Positions 7,246-51,601 of a DNA stretch of 64,000 bases are shown in pieces. Positions within the stretch are counted from its first letter, which is position 1; each line of letters begins with the position of its first letter. Position numbers and translations under genes: made by a program. The notes below the pieces were generated by a model. It ran no database searches. It had not been told where the DNA came from and saw only the letters and a program-made list of their open reading frames with translations. This DNA is from Parcubacteria group bacterium (GTDB lineage: Bacteria > Patescibacteriota > Minisyncoccia > Phycocordibacterales > UBA2135), in assembly GCA_016180525.1 (NCBI GenBank), contig JACPBB010000001.1:75320-139319 (forward strand), read 5' to 3'.

Positions 7246-8559
7246 TTACCGCGAAAGCCAGGCACTCTCTTGCCGCGCTAAAAACTTTGTATCCGCGAGA
7301 TTTTCAAGAATCCGCTCCACTACCCTCTCCATCCGCATTGACTGCGAACCCTTTACAAGCACAATGTCTCCAGAACGCAAAAAGGTTTTTAGAAATTCCC
7401 CTGCCTCAATTGAATTTTCAAAATGATGCGTGTCGGCTTTTTTCATCTTTTTCTTTAGAGCAGATTCATTGATAAGCTGTGCCCGAATACCAACGGTTAT
7501 TAAAACACCGCAAACATCAGGAATTCGAGCCCCAATTTTTTTATGTTCATCCGCGCTGTACTTTCCAAGCTCAAGCATATCTCCCAAAACGGCTATTTTT
7601 CTTCCTCCCTCTGCAGATTGCTCTTTTGTGGGAACCGTCAGGCTCTCTAGAGCATTGAGTGCCGCATGAAGCGCCGCGGGAGATGAGTTGTATGAATCAT
7701 CTATAATAGTTGAGCCGTTGATACCGTGTAACAGTCGCATCCGCCCGGCAGGAAATTGAAATTGCGCGAGTGCTTCAAGCGCGGAGACAATATTAACGCC
7801 CTTTCCAACGCCAACCGCGAGACTCGCGAGTACGCTTAAAAATATATGTGTTCCCAAAACTCCTTTCAAGTGAAGCGGGAGTTTGTTTTCTTTATATGAA
7901 ACTTTTCCAAACATTCCGACAGGATGTTCCTCTCTGTCATATTCTATTTCCGGATTTAAAATAGAAATATCGGCATTAAGAGTTTCTCCAAAAGTAAGCG
8001 TGTTATGCAAAGAAAATTGTTTAAGCGCTAAAACATCTCTGTCGTCAGCATTGAGTACCAGTAAACCTGCTGGTTTAAGCGCTCGCACGAGATGTGTTTT
8101 TTCTTCAATAAGAGCTTCGCGTGAGGGGAAAAATTCTATATGTACTGGTATTTCGGGAAACGCGGTCACCACGACGACGTCAGGTTTAAGCCATGAGGTA
8201 ATTTTTTGTATGTCACCCGGCCTGTCCGTCCCCACTTCAACGACCAGCATTTTTGGATAATGATTTTTTAAAAAAATAAGACTTAATCCTTCAAAAATAA
8301 TTTTAAGCCATCGTATTACGTTGCCCCACGCACTCTCACATCCTAAAACAGTAAGTGGTATGCCGATTTCGCTGTTAAAACTTTTATCGCCTTTCCACAC
8401 ATACATTTCTCTTGAAAGCACTGTCCATGTCGCATCTTTCGCTCCAGTTTTCCCAACACTTCCTGTTATTGCCACGATTTCAGGCTTATACTTATGCAAA
8501 ACAGCGCGCGCAAGCAGTGTAATAATAAGCACAATTATTTTTTTAAACAGTTGCTTCAT
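7246..8559 (-). CDS. murF: Mur ligase family protein, probable UDP-MurNAc-tripeptide--D-Ala-D-Ala ligase (MurF-like), N-terminal TM helix
   Basis: ITGSVGKTG P-loop of Mur ligases, central and C-terminal Mur domains; sits immediately after ftsI in the dcw cluster. Confidence 0.7.
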   Translation of the reverse strand: MKQLFKKIIVLIITLLARAVLHKYKPEIVAITGSVGKTGAKDATWTVLSREMYVWKGDKSFNSEIGIPLTVLGCESAWGNVIRWLKIIFEGLSLIFLKNHYPKMLVVEVGTDRPGDIQKITSWLKPDVVVVTAFPEIPVHIEFFPSREALIEEKTHLVRALKPAGLLVLNADDRDVLALKQFSLHNTLTFGETLNADISILNPEIEYDREEHPVGMFGKVSYKENKLPLHLKGVLGTHIFLSVLASLAVGVGKGVNIVSALEALAQFQFPAGRMRLLHGINGSTIIDDSYNSSPAALHAALNALESLTVPTKEQSAEGGRKIAVLGDMLELGKYSADEHKKIGARIPDVCGVLITVGIRAQLINESALKKKMKKADTHHFENSIEAGEFLKTFLRSGDIVLVKGSQSMRMERVVERILENLADTKFLARQESAWLSR

Positions 8560-8641: not shown

Positions 8642-10345
8642 TTAGCGGTCAGGTGGCACATTGTAATAATGTACCAAAAAAGTAACCGTATCAATAAATG
8701 GAATTGTGAGCGTCTCGGAAGCATATCGTACCCCCTTCGGTTCTACAACATAGAGGAAAACAAGAAACTGCGGATCATATGCGGGAAAATATCCAAAAAA
8801 TGAATGAAAAAAACGATCATCATAATAACCGCCCTTCGAGCCTGCGATCTGCGCGGTTCCCGTCTTTGCCGCGATGCTGTAGTGGGGCATTTTTACCGTA
8901 CCTCCTAGGAGTGCTTCGTCAACAACCCGCACGAGCATACGGGTTATTTCTTCACTCGCTTCCGGTGAAATCGCTCGTTTAAACTCTTCATTTGACCGTC
9001 GTACTTTAGCAGTAAGTCCTTCTTCAAATTCAATTGCGTCAACCACGTGCGGGGTCACAAGCACTCCGCCATTTGCGAGCACTGAAAGCGCGCGCACCAT
9101 TGAAATAGGAGTAACCGCAAACCCTTGCCCGAATGAAGCGGTCGCGATTTCAACATTCCGGTTATTTCGTAAATTCTTTACGAGGTTTGTGGCTTCATTC
9201 GGCAAATCAATCCCCGTTTGCTCGCCAAATCCATACGCAAAAAAATATTCCGAAAACAATTCATTTCCGAGTTTTTTCGCCACATGCACAGCTCCGGTAT
9301 TTAAAGATTGATTTAATATTTCTTGTATAGGAACCCGTCCACGAGCCTTCCCGTCAAAATTTTCAATACGTGCGTTATCTATTTCAACAAACCCATCATC
9401 ATAATAGGTGTCAGTTGGTTTTATTACTCCCGCATCAAGCCCCGCTGCAAGCGTAAGCGGCTTTACCGTTGATCCCATTTCAAATACGCTTTCCACAACA
9501 GAATTTGAAAATATGGAATAATCAGTTTCGTCTCTAAAATTATTCGGGTCAAATGTAGGACGTGCCGCAAGCGCATAGAGCGCGCCTGTTTTTGGATTAA
9601 TGATAACCGCGCCACCAGATTTTGCGTTCCATTTTTTCACAATACCAGAAAGAATTCCTTCCAAAAATCCCTGCACCTCGGAATCTATCGTCAATACCAA
9701 ATCCCCGGCACCAGCATATCTGCTGTCATAAAATAAAGAATTTCTAATGTTGGCAAATGCTTGTGCAAAAAGATTTACCTGCTCTCCCTCTTTTCTTAAA
9801 AGTACGTCTTCATAATATCGTTCAAGTCCATACCGACCGGTAAGCTCATCCCCTTCATACCCTACGAACCCTAAGACGTGCGCGGCCAGTTCACCGCCCG
9901 GATATGAACGCCAGCGCTCTTTGTGAACAGAAACACCTGCAATATTAAGTTGCTGTATTTTTTTAGCGTCTGCTTCAGATATTCTCCAGGCAATTTCCTC
10001 GTACGGATCAAGAACTTTTCCTGCTTGAAGAAAAAAAGAGTCGTCGTCTATGTCCGGTACGATACTCTTTAATTTGGGAAGAACTTCGGAGACATTTTTT
10101 AAAATAGACGGATTAATAGCCACTGTGTAACCTGATTTAAGCGTTGCTCCAGAAAAAATTCCACCAGAAAAAAAAATACTCCCGCGGTCAAAAATGTGCG
10201 CTATCGGGGAAATATATTGTTCTGATGCTTTTTCCAAGTAATAATTACCCCGTATAATCTGCAGAAAAAAAAGCTTGCCCGCGAAAATGAGAGCAAACAA
10301 GGCTATTGGTATATAAAAGAATCGTATTCGTGATGTAGGAGACAT
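8642..10345 (-). CDS. ftsI: Penicillin-binding protein (class B transpeptidase), divisome FtsI/PBP3 by context
   Basis: N-terminal TM, STVKP (SxxK), SxN and KTGTA motifs; follows ftsL. Confidence 0.85.
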   Translation of the reverse strand: MSPTSRIRFFYIPIALFALIFAGKLFFLQIIRGNYYLEKASEQYISPIAHIFDRGSIFFSGGIFSGATLKSGYTVAINPSILKNVSEVLPKLKSIVPDIDDDSFFLQAGKVLDPYEEIAWRISEADAKKIQQLNIAGVSVHKERWRSYPGGELAAHVLGFVGYEGDELTGRYGLERYYEDVLLRKEGEQVNLFAQAFANIRNSLFYDSRYAGAGDLVLTIDSEVQGFLEGILSGIVKKWNAKSGGAVIINPKTGALYALAARPTFDPNNFRDETDYSIFSNSVVESVFEMGSTVKPLTLAAGLDAGVIKPTDTYYDDGFVEIDNARIENFDGKARGRVPIQEILNQSLNTGAVHVAKKLGNELFSEYFFAYGFGEQTGIDLPNEATNLVKNLRNNRNVEIATASFGQGFAVTPISMVRALSVLANGGVLVTPHVVDAIEFEEGLTAKVRRSNEEFKRAISPEASEEITRMLVRVVDEALLGGTVKMPHYSIAAKTGTAQIAGSKGGYYDDRFFHSFFGYFPAYDPQFLVFLYVVEPKGVRYASETLTIPFIDTVTFLVHYYNVPPDR

Positions 10346-41116: not shown

Positions 41117-41197
41117 AATCTCTGCGACTACCTAAAAAACATTCCAATATTCTGCAGAATATTGGAATGTTTTTAGTATATTATATTCTGTAATTAT

Positions 41198-41647: not shown

Positions 41648-41705
41648 GTCCCATACTAAGCTTTGCTCTAGTATCGGAGTCAGCGGCCACGCACCAAATT
41701 TTCCC

Positions 41706-41777
41706 TCCGCGGTAGCTCAGCGGTAGAGCGGCTCCCTGTTAAGGAGATGGTCGCAGGTTCGATCCCTGCCCGCGGAG
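41706..41777 (+). tRNA. tRNA-Asn (anticodon GTT)
   Basis: Cloverleaf read manually: acceptor TCCGCGG/CCGCGGA, D-arm GCTC-AGCGGTA-GAGC, anticodon loop CTGTTAA, T-arm GCAGG-TTCGATC-CCTGC, discriminator G; CCA not encoded. Confidence 0.8.
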
Positions 41778-41835
41778 GAAAGATCTGGTGTGGAGTGTAA
41801 AGAACGTCGTGGCTCCCCGCCTAGAAAGTTTGAAA

Positions 41836-41855
41836 AAATCACACCACAAATTTTA
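41836..41855. repeat. Left copy of perfect 20-bp direct repeat AAATCACACCACAAATTTTA (right copy at 48946-48965)
   Basis: seen directly; flanks a ~7.1 kb accessory block next to tRNA-Asn. Confidence 0.7.
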
Positions 41856-41863
41856 GCGCGTAA

Positions 41864-44638
41864 TTGTACCTGTCCCCATTTTTAAATTTGGCAGAGAAAT
41901 TCGTAAAAATATCATTAAAGGTACAATTAGAGACAAGAGGCAAAATTAGAACCAAAAAATATTGCATGATTTATTGCAACATAGAAGATCTAAGAAACGA
42001 AAGCGACGTAGAGCAAAAGCTCTGCGTTCCTCTTATTACGACTTCTTCAGAAAAAGGTTTAGGCTACTCAAAAAGTGATTATAGTTCAAAAAAGACTCTT
42101 AAAAAAATGGTCATTGGCAAAAGCGGGGACAAAAAATCTTATCGCCCAGATTTCATTACATTTATTCAAGGAACGCCAGTATTGGTAATTGAAGCAAAAA
42201 GCCCAGAGGAAGACCTGACAGAGGGATATAGAGAAGCGAGATTGTATGCGAACGAGTTAAATGCCATATACCCCTCCGGAATAAATCCATGTACGAAGGT
42301 TCTGGTGACAAATGGTAAAGAAATTTGGTACGGCAAAAATGATGAAAGAGAAGTCTTCGGTAAATTAACTTTTAAAGATATCAACATTTCCAACAAGAAA
42401 TTTACTGATCTGTTAGATTTTTGCAGCAAAAGTAAGATTAATAATGAATTAGAGACTGTTATAAAAAAAACGCGCAGTAAAAAAAATTTTAGTAAACCAA
42501 CTGCAATACTTGGAGGAAAAGCGAGTAGGGAGGAGGAACTTGGAAGCAATACTTTTGGTTCTGCTTTAATGTATGAATATCAGAGAATATTCAACCCTGA
42601 AACAAGAGAAGACAGGGTAGAAATTGTCAGAAATGCTTATATACCTTCTACGGGAATTGAAAAACACAAGAGCCCAATTCGAAAGCTAATTCTCGCTACG
42701 CTGCCACCCAGCTTAAAAAACACAACGAAAATCGAAAATACATCAAAACCACGAGAACTTTTGAGCAAGCTCCTGTCCCCCCAAAGGCTATCCAATCAGC
42801 TAATTTTATTAATTGGTAATGTTGGATCAGGAAAAACTACCTTTATTGATTATTTGAGAGAAATCGTATTGCCCACAGAGATAAAAAATAAGACAACGTG
42901 GGTATATATTGATTTAAACTTCGCACCCAACACGAAAGATGAAATTTATCCCTGGGTCCAAGAAAAAATAGTTGCTCAATTGAAAGATACACACCAAGAA
43001 CTTAACCTCGATCACATTGATGAATTGAAAAAGCTATATGCTGGTGATATAGAAGCATTTGAAATTGGTGAAGGAAGTTTACTAAGAGATGACCCAAAAG
43101 AATATAATAAATTGCTTGCCAAACTGATCCAAGAAGCAAAGGCAGACAAAAATAAAACCGCTAAAGCATACACAAGATATTTATGCGGCGATAGAGGAAA
43201 AACATTTATACTCATACTTGATAATGGAGATAAGAGAAACAAAGAAGATCAACTGCTGATGTTCGAAGTGGCCAGATGGGCAAAAGAAGAGTTTCGAGCT
43301 TTAATATTTTTGTCACTACGAGATGTCACATACGATTTACACAAAACGGAGCCTCCTCTTGATACTGTTATCAAGGATATGGCCTTTAGAATTGATCCAC
43401 CAGAATTAAGCCAAGTACTTTACAGAAGAGTCGCATACGCAATTCAGAACTCACCGTCAAGGGGAATCAAAATGACCTTAAATAATATGGTTGTGAATAT
43501 CTCAAAAAAAGAACAAGACATGTATTTAAAATGTATTCTAGAATCGCTTTATAATTCAAGTCCGTTCTCAAGAAAATTGATAAATGGGCTGGCTGGAAGG
43601 GATCTGCGAAGAGGGATAGAGATATTTATAACGTTTTGTAGAAGTGGACATATTTCTAATAAAGAAATATTGAAAATGCGTGTCTCAAATGGTTCCCACC
43701 CCCTTGAAGAACACATCGTCTTGAGGGCTTTGTTAAGGGGTAGTAAGCGATTTTATTCAGGGAGAGACTCTTATATTAAAAACTTATTTGAAAGCTACCC
43801 GGACGAAGAAGTAATCCCCGATCCATTTGTGAGGATGTCAATATTGAAATGGTTTCAAGAAAAAAAAGCGATCCGAGGTCCTAGTGATGCTAAGGGCTTC
43901 CATCCTATCGCTGATCTAGAAACAGATCTCCAATTGATTGGACATAATGAGAAAAGAGTACGAAGTGAAGTAGTAAACTTGCTAAGAGAGCGCTGCCTCA
44001 TAAGTGAAGCGCAAACAGAAGAAATTCTTGCGGAGACAGATCCAAAAGAAATAGAAAAAGGAATTGAGGATAATGATCTGATAAAAATAGCGCCCGCTGG
44101 CACAATTCACTTAGACCTGCTTCTGAATATTGTTTATTTGTCTGCCTGTGCCGAGGATATTTGGTATTGGAGCCATCAGACGGCAACAACTATAAAGGAA
44201 CGACTAACAAGAGAACAGGGGGTTGGACATTATTCGTTATCGACCAACTTAAAAAATTCATCGGACCTAATTGATTATTTAATTGATTATCAAAAAAAAT
44301 ACTACCCCAACAATGAGACTATCATTGACAAAGACATTCCACGCATAGACCTACAAACAATTAAAAAATTTGTCTCTGAGAGAGAACTAAAGGTACAAAA
44401 CAAGAACTCTGACTTGAAGAGGCGTTACCCTTTTAATAAAGAGCTTGTATGTTCTATTGAGAGGATTATCCTCAGGGCTGGAATCAGAGTACTCGTAGAG
44501 CCGGGCGTCTACGGCTTCATCATGAAAAGAGACATAAGGCAAGCAGAAAGTTTCCAGCAAGGTAAAAAAGTCAAAGTGCGAGTCAATGGTCTAGATGAAG
44601 ATCGTAGTACGCTTATTTTAAGTCTAATAGAAAAATGA
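41864..44638 (+). CDS. Large hypothetical protein: N-terminal PD-(D/E)xK nuclease (HsdR-N/Mrr-like) motif fused to a P-loop NTPase
   Basis: YRPDFITFIQGTPVLVIEAK (PD...ExK); LLIGNVGSGKTTFIDYL Walker A; FILILDNGD Walker B; ~500 aa further of unknown function. Confidence 0.6.
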   Translation: MYLSPFLNLAEKFVKISLKVQLETRGKIRTKKYCMIYCNIEDLRNESDVEQKLCVPLITTSSEKGLGYSKSDYSSKKTLKKMVIGKSGDKKSYRPDFITFIQGTPVLVIEAKSPEEDLTEGYREARLYANELNAIYPSGINPCTKVLVTNGKEIWYGKNDEREVFGKLTFKDINISNKKFTDLLDFCSKSKINNELETVIKKTRSKKNFSKPTAILGGKASREEELGSNTFGSALMYEYQRIFNPETREDRVEIVRNAYIPSTGIEKHKSPIRKLILATLPPSLKNTTKIENTSKPRELLSKLLSPQRLSNQLILLIGNVGSGKTTFIDYLREIVLPTEIKNKTTWVYIDLNFAPNTKDEIYPWVQEKIVAQLKDTHQELNLDHIDELKKLYAGDIEAFEIGEGSLLRDDPKEYNKLLAKLIQEAKADKNKTAKAYTRYLCGDRGKTFILILDNGDKRNKEDQLLMFEVARWAKEEFRALIFLSLRDVTYDLHKTEPPLDTVIKDMAFRIDPPELSQVLYRRVAYAIQNSPSRGIKMTLNNMVVNISKKEQDMYLKCILESLYNSSPFSRKLINGLAGRDLRRGIEIFITFCRSGHISNKEILKMRVSNGSHPLEEHIVLRALLRGSKRFYSGRDSYIKNLFESYPDEEVIPDPFVRMSILKWFQEKKAIRGPSDAKGFHPIADLETDLQLIGHNEKRVRSEVVNLLRERCLISEAQTEEILAETDPKEIEKGIEDNDLIKIAPAGTIHLDLLLNIVYLSACAEDIWYWSHQTATTIKERLTREQGVGHYSLSTNLKNSSDLIDYLIDYQKKYYPNNETIIDKDIPRIDLQTIKKFVSERELKVQNKNSDLKRRYPFNKELVCSIERIILRAGIRVLVEPGVYGFIMKRDIRQAESFQQGKKVKVRVNGLDEDRSTLILSLIEK

Positions 44639-44889
44639 GGGGTTTAGAAAGGTTTCATAGGTGACTCCGAATGAACTAAGATTATTAATTGTCTAACTTG
44701 CTCCAGCGACACGCTCGGATAAGAAAACACCCCCTCCCACCTTGTCGTCCGTAGCGTGTCCAGCCACGCGAGTACTTTTTTGAGCCTTGATTTTCAATGC
44801 TCTTTTTTGATACTCCAAGTTGGACATCAGAACTTTTCTTGGTTATATTTCCCATAGAAAGATTTTATTACAAAAAAGGGGTGGTATCA

Positions 44890-45512
44890 TGAACAACCTG
44901 CGACTACAAGGAAAGATTGTCGTTGTCGCTTACTCTGGAGGGCCTGATGCAACAGCACTTACACATCGCTTGAAAATGTCTGGGGCGGTGGTTCATCCGT
45001 TCTACATTAATTACCGCAAACAACACAATCACCCTAAGACTCTTAACGACTTAAGGGCGGCAAATGCATCTGCAGAAATCCTCGGTATCCAGAAAGTCGA
45101 AACAGTTCGAGCCCCACTTGGAGAACGAAGCAAGGGTGAGCGTAATGGGTTCTTCGTTGAAGTTCTCTCACCCATTGCGAGAGAACTTGGAAGTTCCCAC
45201 ATTGGACTTGGCACCATATGGGATGGAACAGACGATGATTTGAGTGTTGAATCCTTGTCTCTTCGTGGCTGTGAGCACAACTGTGAAGTAGTCACGTGGG
45301 ATAGTTTCGGTATACACGAAAAGGCAGATCAGTTTCTGGGGGTAGACACTAAGACGCGCGAAGCGCTGTTTCAGACCACATCATGCCAACGGTGGTGGAT
45401 ATGGAAAACCGAGTGTGGTGGATGCTACAGCTGCAAGGCACGTCACGGAGCTTTTCTCAAGGCCTTTGGGTACGACCCCACGGTTTATTACAAAGCTGTA
45501 TCCTCACTATAA
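44890..45512 (+). CDS. QueC-like PP-loop ATP pyrophosphatase (7-cyano-7-deazaguanine synthase family) paralogue
   Basis: VVVAYSGGPDAT PP-loop (SGGxD), C-terminal CGGCYSCKAR zinc motif as in QueC; AAGGGGTGG RBS before ATG 44890. Confidence 0.55.
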
Positions 45513-45601
45513 TTCTTTTCTCAAAAGTCGCTTCATTATTGAGTGACTTTTTTGTTACGTAAATCCAAGTAATTGTAAATCCCGTTCAACATTTACCCAA
45601 T

Positions 45602-45661
45602 CAAAAGTTCTCCGCCTCGCTCTTACTCGTCGAGACGGGTGAACTCGTCCACAATGGGGAG
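45602..45661. repeat. Copy 1 of ~60-bp direct repeat CAAAAGTTCTCCGCCTCGCTCTTACTCGTC(G/A)AGACGG...CTCGTCCACAATG(G/T)GGAG (copy 2 at 46089-46148)
   Basis: seen directly, ~90% identical. Confidence 0.65.
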
Positions 45662-45733
45662 TAACATTGACAAAGTAATAGTATTGTGCTATTTTTTGTA
45701 CAGTTTTCAAAATAATTAGAGAGGAAAAAATTA

Positions 45734-45937
45734 ATGCACACGCGTGATACATCGAGATTCACGTTCCATTTTAATTCAGATTTCAGTGGCAATATCGTCT
45801 GCATCAATAAGGAAACAGGAGCAGAGATGCAAATTCCCGCAGAGGAAATCTTGCAACTGGTAGCCTACCATTATCTAGCTGCAAAAAAAATTGAAAAACT
45901 CGAACAAGCAAGTATTGAAGAACTTCTACTAGCATGA
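45734..45937 (+). CDS. Small hypothetical protein (67 aa)
   Basis: promoter-like TTGACA and AGAGAGG RBS upstream, two terminator hairpins downstream. Confidence 0.4.
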   Translation: MHTRDTSRFTFHFNSDFSGNIVCINKETGAEMQIPAEEILQLVAYHYLAAKKIEKLEQASIEELLLA

Positions 45938-46088
45938 GTTTGTAATATTTTTATAACCAACCGCCCAAGGAAAACCGTCCTTGCGGCGGTTTTTTACATA
46001 AACCCTGCCTGCCAGTAGGCAGGCAGCCCCCCTATTTCAATTTTAATTTGTTTCCACCCCGCCTTGCCTGATGCAAGTCGAGGCAGGT

Positions 46089-46148
46089 CAAAAGTTCTCC
46101 GCCTCGCTCTTACTCGTCAAGACGGATAAACTCGTCCACAATGTGGAG
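46089..46148. repeat. Copy 2 of the ~60-bp direct repeat, upstream of TspO gene
   Basis: seen directly. Confidence 0.65.
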
Positions 46149-46244
46149 CAAGCAATTTTTCAATTGTGTTTGCAGTAGAGCGCATTTCACATCTGATACA
46201 CTTTTGTTATGTATCTGAAGCGTGCTTTTTGGTAAAATTGGGTT

Positions 46245-46751
46245 ATGAGACTTCCTCCTTCGTTAAAACTTCGGCGGACAAGCAATAATTTTTTCAGATT
46301 GGTTATTGCGATTGCGGTGTCAGAAGCGGCCGGAATTATCGGGTCAGTTTTCACCGTCTCGGCCATTCCGACTTGGTATGCCGGACTTGTGAAGCCGGCG
46401 CTCAATCCTCCGAGCTGGGTTTTCGGGCCTGTTTGGACGATACTCTATGCGCTGATGGGCATTGCGGCGTTTTGGGTGTGGCGTATGGGTTGGGAACGGA
46501 AAGAGATAAAAATGGCGCTTGGAGTGTTTGGCATCCAGCTTTTCTTAAATGCCATCTGGTCAATCATTTTCTTTGGTCTGCATAGCTCCACCTGGGCCCT
46601 CGTGGATATCATTCTGCTGTGGTTTGCAATCGTTTGGACAATGGTTGTTTTCTATAAAATTTCAAAGCCGGCAGCATATTTACTTATTCCATATCTTCTC
46701 TGGGTTAGTTTTGCTTCGTATCTTAATTATTCTATTTGGTTATTAAACTAA
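46245..46751 (+). CDS. tspO: TspO/MBR family tryptophan-rich sensory protein
   Basis: five TM helices, W/Y-rich conserved pattern (PSWVFGPVWTILYALMG...). Confidence 0.8.
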   Translation: MRLPPSLKLRRTSNNFFRLVIAIAVSEAAGIIGSVFTVSAIPTWYAGLVKPALNPPSWVFGPVWTILYALMGIAAFWVWRMGWERKEIKMALGVFGIQLFLNAIWSIIFFGLHSSTWALVDIILLWFAIVWTMVVFYKISKPAAYLLIPYLLWVSFASYLNYSIWLLN

Positions 46752-46755
46752 CTAC

Positions 46756-47268
46756 ATGAGAAAAAAGACAGTAAAAGTAAGTGACAAGATCCAGAAAAAC
46801 TATCAATATGAGCTTACCGAACCGGCTGGCAGGAATTTTCATGCTAGTTTTAAGCCCGAGCTCACTCCCAAACAAATGCTTACCTTGGGCGTTTTCGGCG
46901 GCAAGTACATGACCGACTGCAAAAAAGAATTTCCCAAGGGCTGGTTTACGCGCGCCAAACTTTCGCCCGAGCATCACGACGATACGCTGAATTATTTTCA
47001 TAAACACGCGAGCCAACCGCTTAAGGTGTGGGTTAAAAAGGGATGGATCAATAAAAAGCATGATCCAAGAGGATGGTTTCAGTGGTATTGCCGTTACTAC
47101 ATGGGCCGGCGACTTCCCGGCGAAGACGAACGGCAGATCAAACGCTGGAAAGCCATTCGGCGGCACATTGCGCAGGTCAAAAAGAATTGCAGAAAGAGAG
47201 ATTTAACCTGCCGTCCGACGCAAAGACAGGCGGTACTTCACTGGGCCTACGACAGCCGGAAAATATAA
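46756..47268 (+). CDS. Hypothetical protein (170 aa), basic, W-rich
   Basis: ORF 4 bp after tspO stop; no assignable motif. Confidence 0.5.
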   Translation: MRKKTVKVSDKIQKNYQYELTEPAGRNFHASFKPELTPKQMLTLGVFGGKYMTDCKKEFPKGWFTRAKLSPEHHDDTLNYFHKHASQPLKVWVKKGWINKKHDPRGWFQWYCRYYMGRRLPGEDERQIKRWKAIRRHIAQVKKNCRKRDLTCRPTQRQAVLHWAYDSRKI

Positions 47269-47405
47269 CTCGCACAATTTGCTTAATTAAGCAAACCTGC
47301 CCGCCGGCAGACAAGACTGGATCACAATTGAGGGCCGAGGAGTGAAAGAAGTGCAAGACAGGCGACGAAATCCTTTTTCCCTTCATAGTAACTCGCTGTT
47401 CCCGC

Positions 47406-47438
47406 AAAAAACTCCCATTGTCGGGAGTTTTTTGTTTT
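47406..47438. terminator. Intrinsic terminator AACTCCC-attgtc-GGGAGTT + T-run
   Basis: seen directly. Confidence 0.6.
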
Positions 47439-47506
47439 CTTCTTGAAAAATAAAGACGGGGATGTTACTTTATTTCCAGAGTCATTGGAAATAAGGAGGG
47501 CTCAAT

Positions 47507-48049
47507 ATGCGTAAGGGCAGAGGGCTCGTAGATGTTGATATTTATAATGAATTATTGAAAGTTCCCGGAGCGCGCAAATTGTTACTTGATAACACAACAA
47601 ACCACAGAACAAATCCGAAGACGAATAAGGTGTGCGCTGAAATTCATGAGGACGCTTGGCCAGAAGTGAAAGAAATGGTCGCCAATTGGAAACGCTTCAA
47701 GAAAGGACAGCCGCAGCAAACGCATACAAAAATAGCGCCAAAGAAAGGGACTGCTGTTAAAAAAGAATCGGCTATTGACCCGAAACAGCAAGAGTGTATT
47801 CGGAGACTAAGAAAGCTGAAGCCAGGAGATAAGTTTGCATACAAAAATGTTGGCTATGGCCTCACGAGCTACGAAGATGGCAGTGACGCCATTGAAATCA
47901 AAAAAGGGAAACTATTCACCGAGACCTTCGATAGCATGGGCATGGAATGGACGGGAGCCACTTGGAAGTTTGACGGCGGACTTGGCTTAGTAACCTATAT
48001 CGTTCTTATGGAAGATGTGCCCGAGGGGCAACTCGCGGATCAAGGTTAA
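47507..48049 (+). CDS. Hypothetical protein (180 aa)
   Basis: AAGGAGGG RBS, terminator at 48060-48084. Confidence 0.5.
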   Translation: MRKGRGLVDVDIYNELLKVPGARKLLLDNTTNHRTNPKTNKVCAEIHEDAWPEVKEMVANWKRFKKGQPQQTHTKIAPKKGTAVKKESAIDPKQQECIRRLRKLKPGDKFAYKNVGYGLTSYEDGSDAIEIKKGKLFTETFDSMGMEWTGATWKFDGGLGLVTYIVLMEDVPEGQLADQG

Positions 48050-48385
48050 CACATCACATACCCGGCTCTTGTAGTCGGGTTTTTATCGCACAGATCGCTC
48101 AAGCGGGATTAATCTGGACAAAGCTCTGGCACCTGCGATAAACTCTCGCCACCTCAGTAGTAGAGCGCTACGCGCTCACTACGGGGCAGGCACGAGCATA
48201 CCCGCCTTCACACGAGGTTACGGCAGGTAGGCAGCTCGTAACACGGGGTTACTTCTGGTCAGTGGTGCCAACGAGTTTTGGTTTTATTTTTACCGAAAGT
48301 GTTGCTGCGGGCGAAATACGAACCCAGTGCATTGACCAAGGCAATAGATTACTCTAAGCTAATTTCAGCTTTTAAAGTTCCTTGA

Positions 48386-48805
48386 TTGGGGTGGGATATG
48401 AGAGTTGGCCTGATTGCTTGTTCAAAAACCAAACGAGTTGGCAGGTATAAGGCGAGAGAATTGTATTGTTCTCCTTTATTTCGTTTTGCGTGGCAATACA
48501 CAAGTCAGCATTTTGATAGGGTGTTTATCCTTTCTGCTAAATATGGTCTACTTGACCCAGAAAGACGCGTCTGCGACTACGACACTACGTTGAATACTAT
48601 GACAATTGATGCGCGGAAACGATGGTCTGTACAAGTAGCGAAACAAATTCTGCAAAAAACAAACACAAGTGACGAGCTTCACCTCTTTTGCGGTAAAAAA
48701 TATAGAGAATTTGTTGTGGCATTGCTACGAGGGCAAAAATGTTTTTATCCTCTCCACGGTTTAGGTATCGGGCAGCAGCTGCAATGGTATAAAGAGAGAT
48801 TATAG
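48386..48805 (+). CDS. Hypothetical protein (139 aa; conserved-looking IACSKTK...ILSAKYGLL pattern)
   Basis: ORF only. Confidence 0.45.
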   Translation: MGWDMRVGLIACSKTKRVGRYKARELYCSPLFRFAWQYTSQHFDRVFILSAKYGLLDPERRVCDYDTTLNTMTIDARKRWSVQVAKQILQKTNTSDELHLFCGKKYREFVVALLRGQKCFYPLHGLGIGQQLQWYKERL

Positions 48806-48945
48806 GCCGCCGACATAATTAATCGGCGGTTTTCATTTTACAATCGCAAGCAACGAGTTAGTCTGTTGCAACGAAACGTTAGGGCGCGGAAACATCTCCT
48901 CCCGTTTTATCTTCCATAACATGTCCAAGCCCCACGCGAGCCAAC

Positions 48946-48965
48946 AAATCACACCACAAATTTTA
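48946..48965. repeat. Right copy of the 20-bp direct repeat AAATCACACCACAAATTTTA
   Basis: seen directly. Confidence 0.7.
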
Positions 48966-49047
48966 TTAAAAAAATGTACTTATCCCTATTTCTATTTCCC
49001 GATTCCCCAAGTAAGTAGTTTAAAAAAACCAGCCTTTTCCAAAGTCT

Positions 49048-50583
49048 TTATTGTAATTTATCCAGGCTAAGCAGCATATTCCACGTTTTTCCCTTGTCGC
49101 TTGATTTCCAGATGCGCGCTAGATCTGAATTTATGTAGATGACATTCGGATCAATCGGGTCAAAGACGATGTTTGCAACACGATGGTCATTGGTAATACC
49201 GTTCGGAAGTTTTCCTACGGCATTCCACGTTCTACCGCCGTTGGTACTCTCAAAAATGTCATTTGGCTGGGCATATAGATTGACTCCGATCAGTTTCGTG
49301 CCGGTTTCATCATGCGGATTGTAACGCGCGAAGTTGACCATCATATTATCCGGTTCAAGGAGACTGCCATCGATTGAGTAATAAATTTTATCCATATTAT
49401 CCTTGCTGGCCATAATATAAAAACGGTTTAAATCCACCGCTGAGACATCAAGATGCCTTATGCCAAGGTCAAGCGTAGCACCAAGTTTCGTCCAGCTCTC
49501 TCCGGCATCATTAGTTTCCAAAAACCCCCATTGTTCGTCTGTAGATTTTTTGTCGACATTGGTGCCGCTTGGCAACCCAAACGTGGCCAACCTCAACCTC
49601 TTCGGATCCCGGACATCAATGAAAATTCCAGGCACTCTTAAATCTGGAAACAGTCCGGTCGAAAGCTCTTTCCATGTTTTGCCATTATCCACCGTTTTGT
49701 AGACAATACCTTTCGTTACAAAAGTCTTGCCCTTATCGGGGCCATCCATGCCTTGAGGCAAAGCCGATGTCGTGACATACACTATGTTCGTATCCGTTGG
49801 ATTCATGACCGCACTTTCCGTATAGGCACTCATCTCGCTCGTGAAAAGTTGGTGCCAGGTGGCACCGCCGTCCAAACTTTCAGAAAGCCCCCCAAGTCCT
49901 TCTCCCACTTTTCCTGGAGCACTGCCGCCCGGAGCCAACAGGCGCTGTGGATTTGAAGGATCTATATACAGGTGGAAACGAAGTTCATAACAAGGCTTTG
50001 ATGGATCATCGTTTCGAGGCAAGCCCTTAAGTCCCTTCCCCGAAAAACTCCACGTATTGCCGCCGTCAACACTTTTATATAGACCCTTATACTCTACATT
50101 GATATACATTTCCTTGTTGTTTTTTGGATTAACCACAAACGCCTGTTCAGTTCTGTAGTTATCAAAACCCAACCTTGGATAGCAGTTCACCGGATGTCCT
50201 TGGACAACATCGCTCTCAGCCACTGTTCTTGGTTTACTAGGAAAAGATATTTTCTGAAGCGTTGTTGCCGGCTTAGATTTTCCGAGATCTGTCTCGGATA
50301 CATTTTCTTGGCCGGATTTTGGCATGTCTGCGCGTGGTATTGCCTCTTCAATATTTTGCATACTACGAGCGGAGCTCTGCGGCTCATTTATGATTTCTTC
50401 CGGCCCTTCTCGTTCTGATTGTGTTGAAAAATAAAAATGACTGCCCAGTCCGGCTGCCACGATGACAGCTACAATTCCAATAATGAAAATATGAGTGAAT
50501 CCCCTTTCGGTTTTCATGTTTTTTATTGTATCAAAACTTTTATGACACTCAAAAACTAGGAGAATTCGGAGAGAGTGCTGCAA
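49048..50583 (-). CDS. Exported BNR/Asp-box repeat protein (sialidase/Sortilin-like beta-propeller)
   Basis: N-terminal TM/signal; at least six SxDxGxTW repeats (SVDGGNTW, SLDGGATW, TVDNGKTW, TNDAGESW, STNGGRTW, SSDKGKTW). Confidence 0.7.
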   Translation of the reverse strand: MQHSLRILLVFECHKSFDTIKNMKTERGFTHIFIIGIVAVIVAAGLGSHFYFSTQSEREGPEEIINEPQSSARSMQNIEEAIPRADMPKSGQENVSETDLGKSKPATTLQKISFPSKPRTVAESDVVQGHPVNCYPRLGFDNYRTEQAFVVNPKNNKEMYINVEYKGLYKSVDGGNTWSFSGKGLKGLPRNDDPSKPCYELRFHLYIDPSNPQRLLAPGGSAPGKVGEGLGGLSESLDGGATWHQLFTSEMSAYTESAVMNPTDTNIVYVTTSALPQGMDGPDKGKTFVTKGIVYKTVDNGKTWKELSTGLFPDLRVPGIFIDVRDPKRLRLATFGLPSGTNVDKKSTDEQWGFLETNDAGESWTKLGATLDLGIRHLDVSAVDLNRFYIMASKDNMDKIYYSIDGSLLEPDNMMVNFARYNPHDETGTKLIGVNLYAQPNDIFESTNGGRTWNAVGKLPNGITNDHRVANIVFDPIDPNVIYINSDLARIWKSSDKGKTWNMLLSLDKLQ

Positions 50584-50784
50584 AGGCCAGAGAAAAAAAT
50601 TCGTTCAGCAAAACTTTAACCGGAAACACCTCTTCCTGCCTTGTCATTCATGGCATATCCAGCTACGCACGCTTGATATTAAGGCTAAATTTTTTTCAAC
50701 ATATTGTAAATCTCTTGTCTATACCAAAAAATATTTACCCCCACACCTGTTTTCTTTTTCTCCTCAAATCGTTATTATATCTAG

Positions 50785-51039
50785 ATGTTTTATGTGTATA
50801 TTTTAAAAAGCAAACAGGATCATAGGTTATATGTGGGTTCAACCAATAATTTAAAGCGTAGATTTGCTGAGCATAACAAAAATCTGGTATACTCAACAAA
50901 ATCCCGCGCTCCATTTGAGTTGCGTTATTATGAAGCATATCACTCTGAAAAAGATGCTAGATATCGTGAACGCTCATTAAAGAAAGGCGGCAATGCGCTT
51001 GCGCAACTCAAACGAAGAATTGTAAAAAGTATATTCTAA
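50785..51039 (+). CDS. GIY-YIG nuclease superfamily protein (stand-alone)
   Basis: FYVYILKS...RLYVGST.NL..R..EHN motif, 84 aa. Confidence 0.8.
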   Translation: MFYVYILKSKQDHRLYVGSTNNLKRRFAEHNKNLVYSTKSRAPFELRYYEAYHSEKDARYRERSLKKGGNALAQLKRRIVKSIF

Positions 51040-51100
51040 AGAAAATAGGTGTGGGGGTTTACGTTTAAACATAAATCGTCTACAATACAGAGTTATAAGT

Positions 51101-51601
51101 ATGACAATCGCAAAAGTATATTTAATCGGATCATTAAGAAACCCTGAAGTCCCGCAGATAGCAAATAAAATACGGGAGCTCGGGTTTGAAGTTTTTGATG
51201 ACTGGCACGCCGCCGGACCGGAAGCGGATGATAAGTGGAGAGATTATGAAAAATCAAGAGGCCGCACGTATAAAGAGGCACTTGATGGGTTGGCGGCAAA
51301 CCATGTATATCATTTTGACTTAAAACATCTGGATGAATCCCATATCACCATTTTGCATTTACCCGCGGGAAAATCGGGCCATCTTGAACTTGGGTACGCA
51401 ATCGGAAAAGGCAAGAAGGGCTACATTCTCCTTGATAGCGCCGAGCGATGGGATGTGATGTACAAGTTTGCTCATGGAGTATTCCATAATTTTGATGAAC
51501 TGTTGGAAGAATTAAATCGGATAAAAAGCGAATTTGTACAACCTGAAAAAATAAATAATGAGTCCGGTATTCATCAGGACGATTATTCACTTCAATTTTA
51601 A
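51101..51601 (+). CDS. Nucleoside 2-deoxyribosyltransferase-like protein
   Basis: KVYLIGSL...AGKSGHLELGYAIGKGK pattern typical of the NDT/flavodoxin-like fold. Confidence 0.65.
   Translation: MTIAKVYLIGSLRNPEVPQIANKIRELGFEVFDDWHAAGPEADDKWRDYEKSRGRTYKEALDGLAANHVYHFDLKHLDESHITILHLPAGKSGHLELGYAIGKGKKGYILLDSAERWDVMYKFAHGVFHNFDELLEELNRIKSEFVQPEKINNESGIHQDDYSLQF

Follow-up and report, generated by a model that had tools for sequence, protein, structure and literature searches.

A repeat-flanked block of accessory genes next to tRNA-Asn in a Parcubacteria genome

We analysed a 64-kb stretch of a Parcubacteria metagenome-assembled genome (MAG; GCA_016180525.1, contig JACPBB010000001.1, positions 75,320 to 139,319), referred to below as the window (locus tags HYT93_00620 to HYT93_00670). 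Downstream of its tRNA-Asn(GTT) gene lies a block of accessory, in part defence-like, genes of about 7.1 kb which starts and ends with the same perfect 20-nt sequence. The reading that we somewhat prefer is that the block belongs to a mosaic tRNA-proximal hotspot, and that the repeat goes back to the duplication of a junction or terminator-arm module, which would have come about through an insertion or rearrangement at a hairpin. An earlier reading, made from the sequence only, had proposed a tRNA-targeted integrated element whose integrase has been lost or lies elsewhere. The evidence that bears on both comes from the structure of the repeat, from the corresponding intervals in related genomes and from the genes of the block themselves.

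The repeat pair and its arm family

The 20-mer AAATCACACCACAAATTTTA is present in exactly two copies in the window, at 41836-41855 and 48946-48965, both on the + strand, that is in direct orientation and 7110 nt apart. No further copies were found in the window even with up to three mismatches allowed (mean for shuffled sequences, 0.02). Both the count of two copies and the distance of 58 nt between the 3' end of tRNA-Asn(GTT) and the left copy, which the sequence-only reading had given, agree with this search and with the gene positions from ARAGORN and Rfam. It was also right that the repeat is not random, but the random-sequence null behind its chance figure is too generous for this window, because three more exact direct repeats that measure 20 nt or longer occur in it (45601/46088, 55259/57011 and 20985/22080). 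The features around the tRNA gene and the two repeat copies are as follows.

41686..41705, + strand: motif arm just 5' of tRNA-Asn, CCACGCACCAAATTTT (from the sequence, inverted repeat I7 and the alignment with the relative L029)
41705..41778, + strand: tRNA-Asn(GTT) (ARAGORN; Rfam tRNA at 41706-41777, 66.6 bits)
41783..41797, - strand: motif arm in the tRNA 3' trailer, CTCCACACCAGATCTTT, whose pairing partner is the first half of the left 20-mer
41833..41884, + strand: left 52-nt repeat copy, with the perfect 20-mer at 41836-41855; 3' arm of the post-tRNA hairpin
48943..48994, + strand: right 52-nt repeat copy, with the perfect 20-mer at 48946-48965; in a convergent intergenic gap

As the last two lines indicate, the repeat is longer than first noted. 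The copies at 41833-41884 and 48943-48994 can be aligned over 52 nt with 77% identity, and the alignment falls into three parts: the perfect 20-mer, a 9-nt spacer in which two of nine positions match, and an in-register box of 23 nt with 18 matches (AATTGTACCTGTCCCCATTTTTA vs AAATGTACTTATCCCTATTTCTA). A comparison of the 200 nt to the left of each copy revealed nothing in common. The left 20-mer is preceded, outside the block, by GTTTGAAAAA and followed by GCGCGTAATTGTAC, and the right one is preceded, inside the block, by GAGCCAAC / GCGAGCCAAC and followed by TTAAAAAAATGTAC.

The surroundings of the two copies are different. The first half of the left 20-mer and the tRNA 3' trailer (CTGGTGTGG...CACACCA) fold as a hairpin (-20.1 kcal/mol, z -1.8), and the left 52-mer ends 3 nt before the -35 box of a promoter-like site. 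The right copy has neither a partner arm nor a downstream + strand gene nor a following promoter-like site; its 20-mer is located about 100 nt past a terminator-like hairpin and 83 nt from the stop codon of a BNR/sortilin-like gene on the opposite strand.

On sequence comparison, the 20-mers appear to be the two most alike members of a small family of CCACACC...AATTT arms, whose core CC(C)CACACC is followed by an (A/T)-rich ATTT (CCCCCACACC arms). Arms of this family are located in the window at 41686-41705, 41783-41797, 41836-41855, 48946-48965, 50739-50755 and 51041-51058, and in the related locus L029 at four places (7527-7535, 7558-7566, 8901-8909 and 9077-9085) around tRNA-Asn and in a hairpin upstream of the gene hyp166. 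They mark junctions around tRNA-Asn, the block and a GIY-YIG nuclease gene. Elsewhere in the window, no intergenic region contains the motif, and more distant relatives (80 JGI loci with relatives of hyp166) do not carry it upstream of hyp166.

Searches in larger collections gave little. For the 19-mer, 12 single matches in unrelated organisms were found among the GTDB representative genomes, which is about the number expected by chance; the species is therefore not among the representatives, and the motif is not widespread. A 24-base pattern that spans the attL, attR, attB and attP forms had no match in JGI metagenomes, and the 19-mer had none in viral contigs. No true empty site with one 20-mer was found in these searchable collections, from which the species is absent. 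The Rfam scan returned only the tRNA: neither the 52-mer nor D1, another repeat within the block, matches an RNA family, and both fold no better than shuffled sequences.

No displaced tRNA fragment was found in the window, where the tRNA 3' half occurs once even when three mismatches are allowed. In L029, a partial 5' copy of tRNA-Asn (9101-9137) lies about 94 nt upstream of the intact gene and is broken exactly at a motif arm. At approximately 41668-41702 the window keeps a degenerate remnant of this fragment (ggagtcagcggccacgcaccaaatttt), and the arm at 41686..41705 doubles as such a remnant. Judging from the two sequences, the partial copy suggests an old recombination or duplication at this tRNA gene (tDNA).

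The interval between tRNA-Asn and hyp166 in relatives

The closest relative that we found, and the sole close one compared, is the 9.9-kb locus L029 (GCA_964653905.1; loci and contigs used for comparison are numbered with an L), which has about 82% nucleotide identity to the window. Conservation of the left flank, hyp117-grx-yggU, extends to both L029 and L030, and hyp117 itself has just three relatives among 5.8 billion proteins. In L029, one side of the interval consists of tRNA-Asn, hyp99 and hyp117 and the other of hyp166 and hyp188 (87-88% amino acid identity). Three features of the right flank are needed for the comparison.

49048..50517, - strand: BNR/sortilin-like secreted protein, 489 aa, outside the repeats and missing in L029
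50737..51058, + strand: GIY-YIG gene (84 aa, 50785-51039) inside inverted 21-nt arms, ACCCCCACACCTGTTTTCTTT and AAAGAAAATAGGTGTGGGGGT
51101..51601, + strand: hyp166, 166 aa, unannotated, the right anchor; 88-89% identical to its L029 homologue; weak nucleoside 2-deoxyribosyltransferase-like Pfam match (0.0026)

Between tRNA-Asn and hyp166 there are 1.4 kb with two unrelated small open reading frames (ORFs) in L029, as opposed to 9.3 kb in the window. Homology between the two ends at the tRNA trailer (~41790) and restarts at ~50690, upstream of the BNR gene. Thus, the variable segment of about 41.79-50.69 kb includes BNR, and its edges are not the repeats; it overshoots the right repeat by 1.7 kb. 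No sequence similar to the 20-mer was found in L029, even with five mismatches, and 1.3 kb of other DNA occupies the site. The sequence-only reading had suggested a search for an empty site with a single 20-mer: L029 indeed lacks the block, but the breaks are not at the repeats, BNR is missing too and there is no 20-mer.

A second relative, L024, carries homologues of BNR (80% amino acid identity) and TspO (61%), the latter being encoded inside the block in the window. They are 6.8 kb apart in the same convergent arrangement, with different genes between them, and an HsdS-like (restriction-specificity subunit) gene adjoins TspO. This TspO-BNR linkage spans the right repeat and thereby speaks against an arrival of TspO within a 7.1-kb element. 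In L049, tRNA-Asn lies about 0.8 kb from hyp166.

Other relatives were less informative. No synteny was observed for BNR relatives L025-L028 and L031-L032, and mostly none for the 80 JGI loci with relatives of hyp166; hyp166 itself is widely conserved among Parcubacteria contigs from metagenomes, with 241 relatives in the JGI data. In the approximately 135 loci compared, the genes of the block do not co-occur. In general, the idea that the region next to tRNA-Asn holds an accessory block withstood this comparison, with an interval that differs in both L029 and L024. The lack of recurrence as a unit, taken with the two-part composition described below, points to a mosaic and not to a recurring element.

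The window has 100% identity to four Logan contigs, which come from SRR121134xx/SRR121133xx samples. One contig, L004 (SRR12113384), stops at its position 2230, which coincides exactly with the inner edge of the right repeat, and has G for A at 48946; the end of contig SRR12113384_2792029 reads G-AATCACACC. We estimate that, given eight contig ends, an end at the repeat edge has a probability of about 3% by chance. Other contig ends are at 51021, 51175 and 51180, and contigs from three samples break less than 160 nt from the right arm of the GIY-YIG gene. Such ends may reflect structural heterogeneity in the population.

The arms around the GIY-YIG gene are 95% complementary and could form a hairpin (CCCCCACAC...GTGTGGGGG). 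In L029 (7527-7566), the same hyp166-proximal arms lie 21 nt apart as a gene-less hairpin, which indicates that the GIY-YIG gene was inserted into, or lost from, a palindrome.

Another palindrome, perfect over 40 nt (AAAAACATTCCAATATTCTG/CAGAATATTGGAATGTTTTT), is located at 41135-41174 between hyp117 and hyp99. The order of these two genes is swapped in L029 (9220-9918), and hyp99 is absent from L030 (1723-2322; hyp117-grx-yggU). Thus, hyp99 behaves like a small movable cassette beside a palindrome.

Gene content of the block and the nuclease-NTPase family

All genes of the block are on the + strand, as the sequence-only reading had stated, and are separated by intergenic gaps of no more than 350 nt. 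Its placement of the first gene 9 nt after the left repeat was wrong: position 41864 is merely the first in-frame TTG, and the match of the deposited protein HYT93_00630 (890 aa) starts at the ATG at 41966, 111 nt after the repeat. Of the three proteins that it had called hypothetical, the one encoded at 48398-48805 is a clear member of DUF6884; those of 170 and 180 aa are indeed without a family match. The block contains the following features.

41888..41915, + strand: promoter-like TTGGCA-16-TATCAT upstream of the nuclease-NTPase gene (10 of 12 consensus positions; a consensus match only)
41966..44638, + strand: nuclease-NTPase, 890 aa (Pfam, phrog_14719, AF2, Foldseek)
44889..45512, + strand: divergent QueC-like PP-loop protein (Pfam QueC, SGGPDA loop, CX9CX2CX2C cysteine cluster)
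45601..45664, + strand: D1 repeat, copy 1, 64 nt, directly upstream of promoter-like TTGACA-17-TATTTT (45667-45695)
45734..45937, + strand: 67-aa ORFan bracketed by the D1 repeats, for which no relatives were detected
46088..46151, + strand: D1 repeat, copy 2, upstream of TspO; 92% identical to copy 1, with 31 nt exact
46245..46751, + strand: TspO/MBR membrane protein (Pfam 5e-52)
46756..47268, + strand: 170-aa protein, 4 nt downstream of TspO, no family match
47507..48049, + strand: 180-aa protein, no family match
48398..48805, + strand: DUF6884 protein with a YaaA/DpdC-like fold (Pfam 9e-42; PADLOC PDC-M57A 8e-36)
48807..48839, + strand: terminator-like hairpin CCGCCGA-N9-TCGGCGG, then TTTTCATTTT, which ends the + strand genes (read from the sequence)

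The nuclease gene has a GC content of 36-37%, as opposed to 43-46% in the rest of the block. Within the block, the tetranucleotide deviation rises to a z of about 2 at the nuclease gene only; values of 2.8-3.2 are found in other parts of the window. The composition check that the sequence-only reading had asked for therefore gave a divided answer: GC is heterogeneous, but a tetranucleotide z of at most about 2, exceeded elsewhere in the window, is not distinctive.

The largest gene encodes a protein with an N-terminal PD-(D/E)xK nuclease domain (HSDR_N, Pfam 2.4e-10), a STAND/AAA+ P-loop core (AAA_16/AAA_22 matches; Walker A GNVGSGKTT in the translation) and a C-terminal S1 OB fold. An AF2 model built from 42 homologues had a pLDDT of 86. 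Foldseek placed the core next to Cdc6, ORC, CED-4, Apaf-1, RdrA and plant NLR proteins with a probability of about 1.0, though with low TM values (0.2-0.4), and found ribosomal protein S1 nearest to the C-terminus. A STAND/AAA+ core with a winged-helix module is combined with an N-terminal effector, and the modelled architecture is a STAND-like one of effector, NTPase and sensor.

This family is large, with at least 673 homologues across many phyla, and the protein matches phrog_14719 at 4e-117. Its nearest relatives (58-59% identity) stand alone in unrelated contexts at seven loci (L017-L023) of bacteria of the Candidate Phyla Radiation (CPR); one CPR relative adjoins a DpnI-like gene. On the 25 IMG/VR viral contigs that carry the gene, no other gene of the block lies within 5 kb, and the 52-mer is absent upstream of homologues elsewhere. 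Judging by this distribution, the family is horizontally mobile and travels alone in every other genome examined. Its members were observed in Pseudomonas, on a Desulfocapsa plasmid, in Lentisphaerota and on the 25 viral contigs (L113-L137), and some of them have an extra RRM domain.

The nuclease-NTPase is probably an anti-phage gene, namely a candidate single-gene defence protein. Like the Avs and NLR-like defence nucleases, it has an N-terminal PD-(D/E)xK nuclease and an NTPase whose neighbours by fold are of the NLR, CED-4 and RdrA type, and its C-terminal S1 domain, which is of a nucleic acid-binding kind, could act as a sensor. Unlike Avs proteins, it has an S1 domain and not a TPR-like part at its C-terminus. 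PADLOC assigned it to no Avs or other system model and gave only a weak mad2 match over the nuclease domain.

Two of the remaining proteins could be placed in families. The QueC-like protein scored 31.2 bits against Pfam QueC (cut-off 22) and 18.8 bits against the NCBIfam QueC equivalog (cut-off 150). Its family is rare (42 cluster representatives among 1.84 billion), and no QueD, QueE or TGT partner was found near the gene. The DUF6884 (PF21818) protein scored 142.9 bits against a cut-off of 30 and has both motifs defined for the family (PMC11701544), CxxxK (as CSKTK) and LSAxxG (as LSAKYG). No viral relatives were found for either protein. A PDB sequence search with the QueC-like and 170-aa proteins gave nothing significant, and the single-sequence AF2 model of the latter (pLDDT 37) was unusable.

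Over the whole block, the PADLOC output was limited to the candidate PDC-M57A (8e-36), which had no partner, and to weak matches for QueC, DpdC and mad2. None of the seven ORFs of the block matches an integrase, recombinase, transposase or excisionase family in Pfam, NCBIfam, PADLOC or PHROGs, and among the larger ORFs of the flanks, tested from 34.5 to 63.5 kb, none has a Pfam match to a recombinase family. In the literature on the combination of HSDR_N and S1, on DUF6884 and on Parcubacteria islands, nothing was found beyond the Pfam note on DUF6884 (PMC11701544) and the definition of Islander (PMC4383910).

The genes on one strand and the bracketing repeats led us to consider an integron-like cassette array as well. 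This was rejected: no IntI-like protein was found, and D1 ends in GTT...AAC, which is the reverse of the attC order.

Two further repeats were observed. A 26-nt exact direct repeat (55259-55284/57011-57036) is part of a module of about 45 nt which ends in a TTGAC -35 box and stands upstream of two different genes (55285 and 57100) as another duplicated promoter-upstream module. Additionally, a 27-nt stretch at 46030-46056, after a terminator-like hairpin (CCCTATTTCAATTTTAATTTGTTTCC), is 92.6% identical to L029 8022-8048, which falls in the otherwise unrelated replacement segment of that locus; a similar box, CCCTATTTC, is found in the right 52-mer.

Origin of the block and comparison with known systems

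We lean towards a hotspot between tRNA-Asn and hyp166 (51101) whose content would have been assembled piecemeal and not brought in by one integrase-borne element. It would consist of at least three layers. One would be the horizontally mobile, low-GC gene of the STAND-like nuclease-NTPase. Another would be an older TspO...BNR neighbourhood, which the relative L024 has in common with the window, and the third would comprise lineage-restricted fillers, namely the QueC-like gene, the 67-, 170- and 180-aa ORFs and the DUF6884 gene. The 52-nt repeat would then be a recent duplicate of a junction module made of the 3' arm of the post-tRNA-Asn hairpin and the adjacent box. Such a duplicate may have arisen when DNA was inserted or rearranged at the tRNA-proximal hairpin, and the two copies could now mediate the loss of the intervening 7.1 kb by recombination.

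Several observations weigh against this explanation. A perfect 20-bp core with partial similarity on one side only is the pattern expected of attL and attR once a site-specific integration has taken place, and it is possible that one event created the repeat. The two ORFs without a known fold (170 and 180 aa) leave room for a novel small recombinase. The TspO-BNR linkage is known from a single contig, and L029, the sole close relative, has the interval replaced rather than empty. The alignment of the 20-mer with the CCACACC family needs a 2-nt indel, and the core that they have in common is short.

The explanation closest to the sequence-only reading, a single 7.1-kb element integrated site-specifically downstream of tRNA-Asn, with the 20-mer as the attL/attR core and an integrase that is lost or acts in trans, seems to us unlikely. 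It would account for the perfect 20-nt repeat with its sharp left edge and its imperfect, in-register extension on one side only, in which the 23-nt box would be a diverged arm common to attP and attB. It would equally suit the closeness of the repeat to a tRNA gene, the enclosed genes all being on one strand, the absence of the whole block from L029 and a right repeat copy without a function where it stands, as it lacks both a partner arm and a gene downstream. The end of L004 at the right repeat, with its deviating base, hints at an alternative junction in the population, and the displaced 5' tRNA-Asn fragment of L029 speaks for a recombination history of this tDNA. The 20-mers nevertheless find no support as att ends, because the block and the larger flanking ORFs tested at 34.5-63.5 kb yielded no mobility gene such as an integrase or excisionase, the repeat lies outside the tRNA with no tRNA fragment at the far end, the variable segment relative to L029 runs 1.7 kb past the right repeat and takes in BNR, the TspO-BNR linkage of L024 crosses the proposed boundary, the gene set co-occurs nowhere else, and the composition is two-part and not that of an outlier. 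The core, too, gave only chance matches in viral, metagenome and representative-genome collections. What holds from the sequence-only reading is an accessory block, a non-random repeat and a mobile largest gene.

We are similarly doubtful that the repeat has nothing to do with mobility and is a duplicated regulatory or terminator module upstream of promoters, the block being lineage-specific DNA. Its right copy stands between convergent gene ends, without a promoter-like site or a + strand gene to regulate, no other intergenic region in the 64 kb has the motif, and the high variability of the interval between relatives is left unexplained. On the other side, the window contains two more intergenic repeat pairs, D1 (45601/46088) and the module of about 45 nt (55259/57011), and copy 1 of D1 abuts a promoter-like site just as the left 52-mer ends 3 nt before one. 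The two conserved boxes with a random 9-nt spacer of fixed length also look constrained, unlike the neutral decay of a duplication. That the two 20-mers match by chance is effectively refuted: only the AT-rich, low-complexity tail of the motif speaks for it, as opposed to 0.02 copies in shuffled sequences even with three mismatches and an in-register match that extends to 52 nt.

A more speculative proposal, to which we give little credence, is that the CCACACC...AATTT arms are the working sites of an undescribed cassette-exchange process in this Parcubacteria lineage. Short, GC-rich palindromes that follow genes would serve as places of cutting or recombination, perhaps through the small GIY-YIG nuclease, which itself sits inside one of them, and genes would be inserted, duplicated or swapped there. 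This process would have given rise to the tRNA-Asn fragment and the GIY-YIG gene as well as to the hyp99 cassette and the 7.1-kb block, with the 20-mer pair as its footprint.

CPR bacteria have tiny genomes. To our knowledge, little is known about gene gain and loss in them, and variable hotspots are little described in such small genomes. A hypervariable tRNA-proximal hotspot would mean that the island-like dynamics of well-studied bacteria also occur in CPR bacteria, without an obvious integrase. The block also draws attention to the widespread, uncharacterised nuclease-NTPase-S1 family (890 aa here) as a defence candidate, and to insertions associated with palindromes, though its practical value is modest. 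It seems a fairly ordinary case, a patchwork variable hotspot rather than one integrated mobile element.

With the tDNA-integrated islands catalogued by Islander, which are tyrosine-integrase islands defined by an integrase and a tRNA-derived repeat (PMC4383910), the block has in common the accessory genes beside a tRNA, the short flanking direct repeat and the absence from a related genome. Unlike them, it has no integrase, its repeat begins 58 nt past the tRNA gene instead of being a displaced piece of it, its boundaries relative to L029 are not at the repeats, and its content is mosaic.

There is also a likeness to insertions at terminator or REP-like hairpins. The place of the GIY-YIG gene between its arms is an uninterrupted hairpin in L029, and the block starts after the 3' arm of the post-tRNA hairpin. 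In contrast to insertions of the REP type, no transposase or RAYT (REP-associated tyrosine transposase) was found here, the arm copies that flank the block are direct and not inverted, and there are about six copies of the motif in 64 kb.

Defence islands and variable hotspots offer a further comparison. The block differs from the former in that it contains no experimentally validated defence system, and TspO and several ORFans have no link to defence. Like them, however, it combines a mobile nuclease-NTPase with the PADLOC candidate gene PDC-M57A/DUF6884, and L024 has an HsdS-like gene at the equivalent place. As in variable hotspots, the content between conserved anchors differs from one genome to another, as we observed for the window, L029, L024 and L049.

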